A DNA stretch of 64,000 nucleotides from Clostridium sp. (GTDB taxonomy: Bacteria; Bacillota; Clostridia; Oscillospirales; Acutalibacteraceae): NCBI GenBank assembly GCA_023663865.1, contig JAMPGU010000008.1, positions 715 through 64,714 of the forward strand, in the 5' to 3' direction. Shown piece by piece: positions 17,693 through 52,797 of the stretch; the stretch's first letter is position 1; the number at the start of each line of letters is the position of its first letter. Position numbers and translations under genes: made by a program. The notes beneath the pieces were generated by a model, which saw only the letters and a list, made by a program, of their open reading frames with translations, did no database searches and was not told the origin of the DNA.

Positions 17693-17748
17693 CAGTTTAT
17701 AAATATTTAATAATATGCCATGTGTACATATTACCTAAGGAGGAAATT

Positions 17749-18516
17749 ATGACTAAAGAACCTAAAGCTATGGCTTACGTCAATATGTATGGTGTTCTGG
17801 CTACGCTGGAAAATCTCTGTGCTGTTGATGAGGAAGCAAAGGCAGTCTGTGCATCACTGAAAAAGCCGGTTTCAATTTGCTTTGACGTAAATGACGGTCC
17901 GTGCTGTACCTTCCATTTTACTAATTCAGGCTGCAAAATGAGCGAGGGAAGCTTCGGCTGCACCTGCAAAATGAACTTTTCTTCTCCTGAAAAGTTTAAT
18001 GATTTGATTGATAACAGCAAGCCGGGTATGCCTGTAAAGAATTTGCCGCAGGTATTATCTTTCCTGCTTGGTCCGTTTACTAAGCTTACGGACAGACTTA
18101 CGAAGCTTCTTATGCCGAGCGAGAAGGATTTAAAGGACAGAGCCTTTTTTGAAGAGTCAACAATACTGACCTTCTATACCATTGCCGGTGCATTGTCTGC
18201 ACTTGCAAACAGCGATTCTATATCAAAGCAATCTGCACTTTATACGGTTGATGGTGATGTGTCACTTGGTATTACGGATGTCTGCTATGCAACCCTGAGA
18301 GTCAGGGATCATAAGTTTGAAACCATAAAGGAAAAACCGGATACACCCCGTGCAATTATGGAGTTTAAAACTATTGATCTTGCATTTGGATTGTTCACAG
18401 GAACAGCTTCAACAATGGCTGAGCTTTGTGCAGGCAATATCTATATGGCAGGTATGATTTCAATGGTTGATAATATTAACAGAATTCTTGACAGAGTTGC
18501 TGCGTATTTAGGATAA
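17749..18516 (+). CDS. hypothetical protein with SCP2 (sterol-carrier)-like segments
   Basis: AGGAGG SD. The C-terminal pattern DLAFGLFTGTASTMAELCAGNIYMAGMISMVDNINRIL resembles the SCP2 pattern G.l.p..a...Gk.k..Gd. Paralogous in outline to ORF 21768. Confidence 0.5.
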   Translation: MTKEPKAMAYVNMYGVLATLENLCAVDEEAKAVCASLKKPVSICFDVNDGPCCTFHFTNSGCKMSEGSFGCTCKMNFSSPEKFNDLIDNSKPGMPVKNLPQVLSFLLGPFTKLTDRLTKLLMPSEKDLKDRAFFEESTILTFYTIAGALSALANSDSISKQSALYTVDGDVSLGITDVCYATLRVRDHKFETIKEKPDTPRAIMEFKTIDLAFGLFTGTASTMAELCAGNIYMAGMISMVDNINRILDRVAAYLG

Positions 18517-21767: not shown

Positions 21768-22565
21768 ATGGCAAGTAATGAAACAAAATACACGAATAAG
21801 GTGTTTATGGCAGGCGCTTTGCCTCTTATGAAAACCATTGCCACAGACGTGCCTGAACTGAAGAAAAAGTTTGAGGGCGTTAATGCTATATATCAGGTTT
21901 CTGCTAAAGTGAATGCTGAGGACAAGGAGGCTGTTCACTTTATTGTTGAAAATGGTGAATGGTCTGTTAAGCTGGGCGAATATCTCGGACAGGGCAAAAT
22001 TGATGCAGAGCTTGCATTTTCCTCAATGGAAAAGATGAATGCTTTTATGAAGGGCGATATGTCAAAACTTCCGAAAATGAAGATTAAATCCTTCGGTAAA
22101 TTTATGAAGTTTATGATGGTGCTTTTGAAAATGTCCTCGCTTCTTGGAATTACAGAGCCTCCCGAGGATGATGAGGAGCTTTCACTGCTGCTTTGTAAGC
22201 TGTATTTTTATCTTCTTTCCTCAGGTATTTCTCAGTTGAATAAGCTGGGTCATCCTGCTGTACATGAATGGGCGCTGAAAAGTCCTGACAGATGTTATCA
22301 GTGGGCAGTTGAGGGTCATCCTGAATGTACGGCTTATATGAGGGTTAAGGCAGGTAAATCAAGAGCAGGCAGAGGTGAATATAAGCGTTCAAAGCCTTTC
22401 TTCTGTATGAAGTTTGACTGCGCTACATCTGCTTTGAAGATATTGCTTGGTACAGGCGATATGTTCCAGATGACTGCAAATCAGCAGCTGATTATGGAGG
22501 GCGCGCCTGAATTCGGTGTTCAGATTGGTGACTTTATGATGCTGGTCGGAGACCTTGCAAAATAA
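21768..22565 (+). CDS. hypothetical protein with SCP2-like segments (second copy in the cluster)
   Basis: The N-terminal half has AELAFSSMEKMNAFMKGDMS. The C-terminal half has SALKILLGTGDMFQMTANQQLIMEGAPEFGVQIGDFM. Confidence 0.5.
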   Translation: MASNETKYTNKVFMAGALPLMKTIATDVPELKKKFEGVNAIYQVSAKVNAEDKEAVHFIVENGEWSVKLGEYLGQGKIDAELAFSSMEKMNAFMKGDMSKLPKMKIKSFGKFMKFMMVLLKMSSLLGITEPPEDDEELSLLLCKLYFYLLSSGISQLNKLGHPAVHEWALKSPDRCYQWAVEGHPECTAYMRVKAGKSRAGRGEYKRSKPFFCMKFDCATSALKILLGTGDMFQMTANQQLIMEGAPEFGVQIGDFMMLVGDLAK

Positions 22566-22582
22566 TATATATTACATATTTT

Positions 22583-22614
22583 AAGGACAGTCAAAGTAAT
22601 GACTGTCCTTTGTT
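22583..22614 (+). terminator. intrinsic terminator of the five-gene cluster
   Basis: AAGGACAGUC-AAAGUAAU-GACUGUCCUU (22583-22610), followed by UUGUU. Confidence 0.55.
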
Positions 22615-22649
22615 CATTGACTTTGCTGCTTAAAGATGCTATACTGAAA

Positions 22650-22817
22650 TTGCCAAACAAAATTGAATTTTTTCGTTAAGAAAGTATGTCTTTTTATTTT
22701 TTGATAAAAATGCGTACTCTATTTGCACATGCTTTTTTAATGATTGTATGTTCAATTTTGTTTGGCGACAGTTGGGGTATGCGTTTTATTGCACAGCTTC
22801 GGCTGTGCATTTTTTTT
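22650..22817 (+). ncRNA. structured small RNA, array copy 1 (unknown family; ends estimated)
   Basis: Promoter TTGACT(22617)-17-TATACT(22640). P1 pairs 22652-22667 with 22751-22766 (16 bp). Terminator UGCACAGC-UUCG-GCUGUGCA + U8 at 22790-22817. Confidence 0.6.
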
Positions 22818-22916
22818 ATTTTATGACAACAAAAATATGAATGCTTTTAATTTGAGTTTAAAGCATTTGAACATTTGTATTTATTGACTTCACTGTCTAA
22901 TGATGATATACTAAAA

Positions 22917-23078
22917 ATGCCAAATGATTTTCAATTTTATAACCATAAGATGCGGTAAGTGTTTTTCTTGTTAAAAATGCTTGCTCTTTTCAGCTTACTG
23001 CTTTTATGGTAAATTGGAAAATTGTTTGGCGACAGTGGGAGCAGCGTTTTATTGCACAGCTTCGGCTGTGCATTTTTT
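22917..23078 (+). ncRNA. structured small RNA, array copy 2
   Basis: Promoter TTGACT(22884)-17-TATACT(22907). P1 pairs 22919-22937 with 23011-23030 (includes G-U pairs and one bulge). Terminator at 23053-23078. Confidence 0.6.
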
Positions 23079-23181
23079 GTTTTATGGCAATAAAGAAAAC
23101 GATGAATGCTTTTGATTTGAATTTAAGGAACTTGAACATTCGTATTCATTGACTTTACTGCCTAATAATGATATACTGAAA

Positions 23182-23343
23182 TTGCCAAACAAATTCCATA
23201 ATTATTTTAACTAACATAGGTGGGCGTTTTTATTTTGTTAAAAATGCGTGCTCTTGTTCTGCACACTTGTGTTAGTGTAAGGAATTTGTTTGGCGACAGT
23301 TGGTGCATGCGTTTTATTGCACAGCCTCGGCTGTGCATTTTTT
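23182..23343 (+). ncRNA. structured small RNA, array copy 3
   Basis: Promoter TTGACT(23149)-17-TATACT(23172). P1 pairs 23184-23197 with 23281-23294 (14 bp, perfect). Terminator at 23318-23343 with loop CUCG. Confidence 0.6.
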
Positions 23344-23446
23344 GTTTTATGGCAATAAAGAAAACTATGAATGTTTTTAATTTGAATTTAAAGAGTTTGA
23401 ACATTCGTATTCATTGACTTTGCTGCACAATAATGATATACTAAAA

Positions 23447-23618
23447 ATGCCAATAACTCTATAATTTAATAATGTACAAATAAACAGCGTGTTTTTTTAT
23501 TCTTGATAAAAATGCAGGCTCTTTATTAGCATACTGTTTTTTGTACAGTATAGTTATAGGGTTGTTGGCGCAGTCGGAGTCTTGCGTTTTATTGCACAGC
23601 TTCGGCTGTGCATTTTTT
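23447..23618 (+). ncRNA. structured small RNA, array copy 4 (also the leader of the NYN-like ORF)
   Basis: Promoter TTGACT(23414)-17-TATACT(23437). P1 pairs 23449-23464 with 23554-23569. P2 pairs 23473-23487 with 23534-23547. Terminator at 23593-23618, 19 nt before the ATG at 23638. Confidence 0.6.
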
Positions 23619-23637
23619 ATTTTAGGGGATAAAGAAT

Positions 23638-24015
23638 ATGGCTTGCTTTTTAATTGATTTTGAGAATGAAAGCGGAAAACTGCTTGACGGAATATCCTGC
23701 CTGAATTTGACCGAAAAGGATGAGCTTGTAATTTTCTACAGCAAAAATGTGTCCCACGTACATATGGAGCTGCACAAGGAGCTTGAAAAGGTGCGGGCAA
23801 AAAAGCTGTATATTAAAACAGAGGTAGGAACACCGCATGCACTGGATTTTCAGCTTTCCTCCTATCTGGGAGCCTGTATTCAGAAACACCCTGAAAAAGA
23901 ATATTTTATTGTGTCAAAGGACAAGGGATTTGACTGTGTCTGTCGTTTTTGGAACAGTAAAAATATTTTTGTAGAAAGAATTGCCGTGATTTTGCTGTTG
24001 GGTATGTACAGATAA
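23638..24015 (+). CDS. small NYN/LabA-like (PIN-fold) putative ribonuclease, 125 aa
   Basis: AGGGGA SD. Motifs CFLIDFEN (N-terminal strand plus acidic residues), HALDFQLSSYLG and YFIVSKDKGFD follow the NYN-domain pattern (iDgeN ... aDi.l ... SgDsDf). Judged by eye only. Confidence 0.55.
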   Translation: MACFLIDFENESGKLLDGISCLNLTEKDELVIFYSKNVSHVHMELHKELEKVRAKKLYIKTEVGTPHALDFQLSSYLGACIQKHPEKEYFIVSKDKGFDCVCRFWNSKNIFVERIAVILLLGMYR

Positions 24016-52519: not shown

Positions 52520-52797
52520 ATGAAACGGCTTAGACAAAGAGGAGTAGCTTGTACTGATCTTTCAGAGAGTGTCCGTTGGGTGAAAGGACACAGAGAGGGC
52601 AGGTGAAGGTAGCTTTCGAGCCGGCTGGGTGAAACAGCAGTAGCCTGGTCCGTATTTCTGCGTTAAGGATTTAAGCGGCATTTTGCAGGCAATTATAAAG
52701 ATGGATTTTGTTTCTTTTATTGATTTGCTCTGCAGTGCAATTTGAGTGGTACCACGGAATTTTATCCGCCTCATTTTTGAGGCGGTTTTTATTTTTT
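52520..52797 (+). promoter_or_regulatory. T-box riboswitch leader (tRNA-sensing attenuator) of valS
   Basis: Stem I elements are present: GGAGUAGC, CAGAGAG and the distal GGGUGAAAG. CGUUA F-box. T-box sequence AAUUUGAGUGGUACCACGG at 52739-52757. Terminator CCGCCUC/GAGGCGG + U-run at 52766-52797. Confidence 0.88.

Follow-up and report, generated by a model that had tools for sequence, protein, structure and literature searches.

We analysed a 64,000-nucleotide (nt) window of a Clostridium sp. genome (assembly GCA_023663865.1, contig JAMPGU010000008.1, positions 715 to 64,714), in which four tandem units, each with a promoter, a structured RNA and a terminator, lie directly upstream of a 125-aa open reading frame (ORF) that matches the PIN7 family. 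All features of this array are on the + strand. Just ahead of it is the intrinsic terminator (22583..22610) of the gene before (ORF 21768-22565), and its first -35 box begins 7 nt beyond that terminator. Tandem Repeats Finder returned a 265-bp period over the array, in agreement with the four units of period 267, 265 and 265 bp reported in a preliminary description of this DNA. The near-consensus promoters of that description, TTGACT-17-(TGn)TATACT at 22617, 22884, 23149 and 23414, were recovered in a consensus scan, which found four such sites in the window against 0.04 expected from shuffles.

In unit 1, the promoter (22617..22645, TTGACT-17-TGcTATACT) is followed by an RNA at 22650..22819, whose basal stem P1 starts at 22652 and whose terminator hairpin occupies 22790-22809; this RNA scores 155 bits with the covariance model introduced below. 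Unit 2 has its promoter at 22884..22912, RNA at 22917..23082 (148 bits) and terminator at 23053-23072, and unit 3 has them at 23149..23177, 23182..23347 (153 bits) and 23318-23337. In unit 4 (promoter 23414..23442, terminator 23593-23612), the RNA at 23447..23622 (129 bits) is the actual leader of the PIN7 ORF. The terminators, starting at 22790, 23053, 23318 and 23593, share the GC-clamped form TGCACAGC-UUCG-GCTGTGCA plus a U-tract, with a CUCG loop in copy 3, as had been described. The ORF (23638..24015) has a Shine-Dalgarno (SD) sequence, AGGGGA, at 23624..23629, and its ATG at 23638 lies 19 nt past the last U-tract. There is no room for a promoter between terminator and ATG, so the ORF can be reached only by terminator read-through, a point on which we concur with the preliminary description.

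Each RNA, ~165-175 nt long, folds into a long rod with fold z-scores of -5.6 to -9.1. When the four units are aligned, conservation is seen at the promoter, in an apical motif, in the 3' tail and at the terminator; the stems vary in sequence between copies and pair nonetheless. On these promoter, rod-fold and terminator signals, each unit is predicted to be an autonomous module, as first proposed. The RNA also keeps its standing as a structured RNA without a name: at Rfam 15 gathering scores no family matched the array RNAs, and at E <= 10 the region gave only chance-level matches. A scan of 12 diverse members of the RNA family returned nothing relevant; 6S RNA, signal recognition particle RNA, T-box, known riboswitches and the abiF motif were excluded by these Rfam scans. 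No description of the family was found in the literature on PIN7/PF18475, PIN-domain type III toxin-antitoxin (TA) systems or clostridial anti-antiterminator leaders, nor did its conserved sequence strings lead to one. The only Rfam family in the window is a T-box leader at 52522-52776 (+), which scores 120 bits against a gathering score of 93.

The preliminary assignment of the ORF to PIN/NYN-like proteins was upheld by its match to Pfam PIN7 (PF18475) over residues 5-107 (E = 2.6e-24, 86.3 bits, cut-off 34). Its clade comprises ~75 proteins from metagenome-assembled genomes (MAGs) of gut Clostridia, 120-135 aa long and 52-75% identical. More distant PIN7 relatives are 190-212 aa long, and the window ORF is a minimal form without their C-terminal extension; we know of no characterised member. 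Across 52 sequences, D7, E9 and D95 are invariant, and N10, D70 and S93 are present in at least 90%. An AlphaFold (AF2) model of the ORF has a pLDDT (predicted local distance difference test) of 88, and its structural neighbours in BFVD are NYN, LabA/DUF88-like and NYN plus double-stranded-RNA-binding domains (E 2.9e-5 to 2e-2, template modelling (TM) score 0.58-0.67), the top ones being NYN domains fused to double-stranded-RNA-binding motifs. The best structure match in the PDB was weak (the Nmd4 PIN domain, E = 2.7e-3, TM 0.45) and stood among generic Rossmann-like folds. A sequence-profile search of the PDB gave no relative, and no close solved structure was found; searches of PADLOC (E <= 1), PHROGs and NCBIfam gave no match. 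On its profile match and conserved acidic residues, the ORF is a predicted PIN7/NYN-LabA-like protein. In one homologue of 53% identity (P0074; L007:5262-6390, +), the conserved D70 is lost and ALDFQL reads SIYLLL; at that locus a gene for a 235-aa coiled-coil-like protein without a Pfam match precedes PIN7 in place of the RNA.

Covariation in the RNA sequences supports three mutually exclusive helices: a terminator, an antiterminator and an anti-antiterminator. The putative anti-antiterminator joins segment A (AAAAUGCnnGCUCU; 22707-22720, 22974-22987, 23241-23254 and 23509-23522 in units 1 to 4), at the tip of the rod, to the 3' tail (GGAGCnnGCGUUUU; 22774-22787, 23035-23050, 23302-23315 and 23576-23590), at its base. 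In an independent MAFFT alignment of 33 RNAs, its 14 pairs are formed in 96% of cells and 5 of them have changed on both sides; the basal stem P1 covaries there as well. Matched A:tail duplexes average -18.0 kcal/mol and mismatched ones -13.7, a gap of 4.3 kcal/mol (permutation p < 5e-5). Segment A covaries likewise with the 5' strand of the apical hairpin (-10.3 matched, -8.1 mismatched). Across 109 aligned RNAs, pairing reaches 97% for A:tail and 99% for the terminator, which covaries extensively.

In the putative antiterminator, the tail pairs with the terminator's loop and 3' half (ACAGUUGGAGC with GCUUCGGCUGU; the 5' strand of this helix is at 23571-23580 in unit 4). The 109-RNA alignment was not fitted to this helix; 92% of its cells are paired, and compensatory changes are present at pairs 197/271 (AU 69, UA 16) and 198/268 (AU 41, GC 38). 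In the PIN7 subset the changes are one-sided only, because the terminator was fixed by the way those loci were found. For the 3' domains of the window units, the terminator alone is predicted at -14.0 kcal/mol and the antiterminator conformer at -16.4 to -18.5. Folded without the 5' strand of the rod, these domains reach minimum energy with A paired with the tail and the terminator intact. The rod separating A from the tail measures 32-50 bp (mean 40) and has a recurrent, semi-conserved 5' bulge of 2-5 nt, ~16-19 bp from its base, with lower and upper arms of similar length.

On this evidence, each unit is probably a transcription attenuator, in which a strong sigma-A-type promoter drives a ~165-nt leader RNA with a conditional intrinsic terminator. 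The apical hairpin would sequester segment A (AAAAUGCnnGCUCU), leaving the tail free to pair with the loop and 3' half of the terminator; RNA polymerase would then pass into the downstream gene. Were A instead to pair with the tail (GGAGCnnGCGUUUU), the antiterminator would not form, the terminator hairpin would, and only the short RNA would be made. Switching would be co-transcriptional, we infer, and the trigger could be a protein or ligand that acts at the apical hairpin, or could be provided in trans by the terminated RNA. In the array, unit 4 would control expression of the PIN7 ORF. With the switch ON, units 1-3 would contribute up to three further promoters; with it OFF they would leak little, since a transcript begun there has several terminators to pass.

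The RNA and short-form PIN7 travel together. In seven loci fetched through the protein alone (L001, L002, L004, L006, L196, L198 and L200) and in the window, PIN7 comes directly after the same set of promoter, RNA and terminator (8/8), the RNA ending ~15-45 nt before the ATG. The contexts of these cassettes are unrelated: they follow glycosyltransferase, glycoside hydrolase, pnp, mini-RNase III and ctsR genes, among others. The window has four RNA copies, L006 three, L200 two and the rest one; arrays of 2-4 copies upstream of PIN7 occur in the window, L006, L021, L037, L023 and L200. A single unit is found in most PIN7 loci, and the four-copy array is not a feature of the family. L004 and L006 lie ~8 kb apart on one 539-kb contig (ERZ27311191 k141_1181), with one and three RNA copies and distinct PIN7 proteins (P0057 and P0064); the two cassettes point outward, at the ends of the divergent housekeeping operons rpsO-pnp and rplU-rpmA-obg-mini-RNase III. 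At L038:1002-1199 (-), ~200 nt with terminal inverted repeats (GCCAACCAAGAGT ... ACTCTTGGTTGGC) are inserted between the leader terminator and the PIN7 ATG, resembling a miniature inverted-repeat transposable element (MITE).

A genome scan with the terminator 23-mer yielded 31 loci in ~20 MAG species. PIN7 is immediately downstream in 20 of the 31; four (L012, L018, L022, L029) have a complete RNA followed by another gene or by nothing, and six are bare terminators after unrelated genes. Among the RNA loci that share the window terminator, 18 of 22 are linked to PIN7. We treat the bare matches as convergence of a GC-clamped UUCG terminator, and the terminator is consequently not diagnostic of the RNA family. 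The 23-mer also matches one viral contig, which scores only 35 bits with the RNA model; blastn of one unit against phage and plasmid DNA gave no match. The exact hairpin TGCACAGCTTCGGCTGTGCA with a T-run also stands behind unrelated genes as an ordinary terminator, in some cases bidirectional (L013, L015, L019, L020, L039, L041), its hosts being other Clostridia MAGs and one bin labelled Coriobacteriaceae.

We built a covariance model from the RNA and scanned metagenome contigs independently of terminator and protein, using the pattern AAAAAYGC, N35-55, GTTTSGCGAC, N9-15, GYRTTTT. This gave at least 120 loci, nearly all of them full-length matches to the model (44-142 bits, G+C 0.30-0.53). PIN7 was absent from all 120 metagenome loci listed, by hmmsearch of the downstream frames and tblastn of the whole loci. 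The association of RNA and protein that the preliminary description had put up for a covariance-model search held when approached from the protein, where all eight loci are linked, and was absent from these metagenome RNA loci. In the metagenome loci listed, a hairpin and U-tract end the RNA in 115 of 120, and a same-strand ORF starts within 250 nt in 102, with a sharp mode 17-38 nt after the stem, a spacing that leaves room for an SD and none for a promoter. A -10 box lies 3-9 nt upstream of the RNA 5' end in 74 of 112 RNAs, 66 of them with the TGn extension.

In these loci the RNA is directly upstream of more than 30 unrelated protein families. They include BspA-type leucine-rich repeat (LRR) proteins (7), helix-turn-helix proteins (3), extracytoplasmic function-type sigma factors (3) and EcoRI-type methylases (2), together with BglII endonuclease, D12 methylase, SPFH, Ltp lipoprotein, SLH, M23 and CHAP proteins, hexapeptide transferases and many ORFans; by a crude rule, ~37% of the downstream proteins carry signal peptides. 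A Cys-rich peptide of ~60-85 aa (...DITG.EL.P..P..CLGNGE..FECCCDECDCYL...), without a Pfam match at 1e-5, recurs behind the RNA in L083, L084, L105, L121, L133 and L158.

These data bear directly on the proposal in the preliminary description that the locus follows type III TA logic, with the RNA copies binding and neutralising the PIN7 nuclease and a leaky terminator setting the excess of RNA over protein. The order of promoter, RNA, terminator and nuclease gene fits such a system, as do the co-travel of RNA and short-form PIN7 across contexts and the recurrence of 2-4-copy RNA arrays before PIN7; AbiF/RCd22 (PMC12373285) is also a published case in which a structured antitoxin RNA without repeats precedes its toxin. 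Of four testable features, however, only the terminator and read-through layout agrees, while toxin family, repeat type and exclusivity of the RNA-protein pair do not. PIN7 is not ToxN, CptN or TenpN and has no PADLOC match; the RNA family extends far beyond PIN7, to unrelated genes; and all conserved RNA sequence is explained by the RNA-RNA switch helices. The conserved nucleotides fit a terminator/antiterminator/anti-antiterminator switch and are unlike a protein-specific antitoxin motif. Conversely, no RNA was found at distant PIN7 genes of 31-53% identity, comprising P0074, a 192-aa form and 33 relatives of 31-43% identity on IMG/VR viral contigs (L043-L075). At L031:232-380 (+), the leader rod and -10 box have been deleted between two TTTGCGAT repeats, and the tail, the terminator and an intact-looking PIN7 remain although most of the RNA is gone. 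We consider the TA explanation very unlikely; the role of the RNA is probably that of a gene switch, not of an antidote reserved for the nuclease.

The strict linkage of PIN7 to its leader could also arise if the enzyme cleaved members of the RNA family, its own leader included, and used that leader as both substrate and sensor in a feedback loop. Leaders are controlled in this manner by RNase III, RNase E and PNPase, each acting on its own. The conserved acidic active-site residues point the same way, as does the pairing of a long double-stranded RNA rod with a protein whose nearest structural neighbours combine NYN domains and double-stranded-RNA-binding motifs. Such autoregulation is purely inferential, however, and most sampled members of the RNA family have no PIN7 nearby; we regard it as quite unlikely.

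Several observations weigh against the attenuator. RNA ends, termination efficiency and read-through are all predictions, and the pair counts were judged against shuffle controls that ignore kinship between sequences. The RNA family has no conserved unpaired pocket that would hint at a ligand. Pairing of A with the tail within one molecule is sterically hard over a 32-50-bp rod unless the rod folds back at its 5' bulge; a classical pseudoknot is unable to span the distance, and the anti-antiterminator may not form in cis. Finally, every unit keeps its own promoter even when another RNA unit comes next, and a few RNAs without a plausible downstream gene (L029 and 18 of the 120 metagenome loci listed) also fit an autonomous small-RNA gene.

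The last two points are what would be expected if the units were genes for trans-acting small RNAs, in which the stable ~165-nt rod would be the product, its apical loop (GAUAAAAAUGC) would pair with other targets, and read-through would be incidental. A promoter and terminator in each unit, also inside arrays, and several copies per genome speak for such genes, and tandem small-RNA paralogues with their own promoters exist in Listeria LhrC1-5 and Vibrio Qrr. Yet the partner of the apical loop sits in the same RNA and covaries with it copy by copy, the antiterminator helix covaries although it would have no role in a pure small RNA, and same-strand ORFs 17-38 nt past the terminator are far too frequent for independent genes. 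This makes a pure small-RNA function unlikely.

For the attenuator itself, the steric problem leaves two possibilities for A:tail, namely that the rod folds back at the 5' bulge or that the helix forms between copies of the same RNA. The variable rod length favours intermolecular pairing, as length cancels out in a tip-to-tail dimer. The leader would then be a self-recognising RNA, the apical loop of one copy pairing with the tail of another with the rods antiparallel, and accumulated terminated RNA would bind nascent transcripts of its own locus and force termination. We advance this trans version tentatively and think it rather unlikely. If it is true, it would amount to a same-strand, locus-specific 'countertranscript' attenuation, in which the accessory gene is expressed solely while little of the RNA is present, as might be the case soon after horizontal transfer or RNA turnover, and tandem copies raise the dose of repressor RNA. 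The A and tail codes are distinct among the window units and shared in L006, and those of L021 and L037 look shared by eye; such mixed orthogonality within arrays favours neither cis nor trans.

The long hairpins might alternatively function as DNA, either as recombination sites similar to integron attC or as MITE-like repeats marking mobile cassettes. Their outer ends (GCCAAAY ... GTTTGGC) are conserved around a hypervariable palindromic centre of variable length, the downstream genes are typical accessory cargo, and cassettes stand directly after the terminators of housekeeping operons. Against this, the conserved pairs include many G-U, and since the opposite strand would have A-C mismatches at those positions, the structure is strand-specific. 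A promoter and terminator bracket every unit. The ends are unlike the attC boxes RYYYAAC/GTTRRRY, with AAU for AAC in half of the copies; no integrase, transposase or recombinase was seen among the neighbours of the PIN7 loci examined; and the copies, in contrast to those of a MITE, are unlike one another in sequence. A DNA-level element is therefore extremely improbable. A guide-RNA function was also rejected, as the RNA is double-stranded in its variable part and the changes there are compensatory.

The best-supported interpretation is that the array RNAs belong to a new family of attenuator leader RNAs, one lineage of which is fixed before a minimal, putative PIN7/NYN-like nuclease. The family as a whole would be a large, apparently undescribed set of switchable terminator leaders before many unrelated accessory genes. 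If this is correct, gut Clostridia, in the form of Oscillospirales-type MAGs labelled Eubacterium, Ruminococcaceae and Acutalibacteraceae, use one portable promoter/switch-RNA/terminator cassette to gate genes as different as those for surface LRR proteins, lipoproteins, sigma factors, restriction-modification enzymes and a PIN-like nuclease. The RNA is abundant, with at least 120 metagenome loci, and absent from Rfam. Its design would be unusual: the deciding helix connects opposite ends of a long rod that evolves fast, namely the loop at the tip and the tail at the base. We would not list the window locus as a new type III TA class.

The origin of the array can be read from its spacers. Those after units 1-3 (22820..22883, 23083..23148 and 23348..23413) align with the SD and first ~11 codons of PIN7 as degenerate copies of the ORF start, which indicates that the array arose by tandem duplication of promoter, RNA, terminator and ORF start. 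Identity between the window units is 83% (78-91%) in the spacers, 83% in the promoters, 93% (88-97%) in the terminators and 43-47% in the rod interior. The rods have thus diverged far faster than the neighbouring, apparently functionless spacers, possibly through selection against recombination or cross-pairing between adjacent units, or through exchange with other loci. The P1 stems of units 1-3 have closer look-alikes in other genomes (for example L021/L037, L006 c3 and L027/L033) than among themselves.

Upstream of the array, two + strand ORFs of 264 and 265 aa without a Pfam match (17722-18516 and 21768-22565) flank an aminotransferase/split-transketolase cluster. They are weakly alike, at 22% identity over 207 aa (E = 0.005, a single comparison).

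Among known systems, the closest mechanisms are anti-antiterminator leaders, of which the pyr/PyrR and S-box leaders are examples, and plasmid countertranscript attenuation if the pairing occurs in trans. The pyr (PyrR), S-box/SAM-I and T-box leaders of Firmicutes resemble the RNA here in having a series of mutually exclusive helices whose last member, an intrinsic terminator, comes immediately before the ORF under control; in both, the 3' half of the terminator is taken up by the antiterminator, and an anti-antiterminator further upstream decides. Unlike those leaders, the RNA here has no Rfam match or conserved ligand pocket; the strand that forms its anti-antiterminator is part of the hairpin capping a hypervariable rod of 32-50 bp, a long way from the strand it pairs with; and its genes form a heterogeneous accessory set without a common pathway, with units that occur in tandem under their own promoters. 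In plasmid rep attenuation (pT181 RNAI/II, pIP501 RNAIII, pAMbeta1), an RNA loop pairs with the nascent leader and blocks the pre-emptor or antiterminator, so that a terminator forms before the ORF. A:tail would work alike if it acted in trans, except that the 'antisense' segment is on the same strand and transcript as its target, with no opposite-strand promoter.

With regard to the protein, the ORF resembles PIN7/NYN-LabA nucleases in its match to PF18475 and in keeping the acidic residues D7, E9, D70 and D95. The type III TA loci toxIN, cptIN and tenpIN share with the window the order of promoter, repeated RNA, terminator and promoter-less ribonuclease-like gene. Their antitoxin repeats are direct, ~34-36 nt long, made as an array from a single promoter and then cut into units, whereas those here are 265 bp and each a complete gene, and the predicted PIN7/NYN-like fold is not ToxN-like, nor is the RNA protein-specific. 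Among published loci, the nearest in layout, with a structured RNA ahead of a toxin, is AbiF/RCd22 of Clostridioides difficile, where a structured non-coding RNA upstream of the gene for a toxic RNA-targeting protein down-regulates its transcription (PMC12373285). RCd22 carries abiF motifs, is tied to Abi_2/AbiF proteins and binds them directly (PMC12373285), whereas the RNA described here has neither an abiF motif nor exclusivity for one protein.

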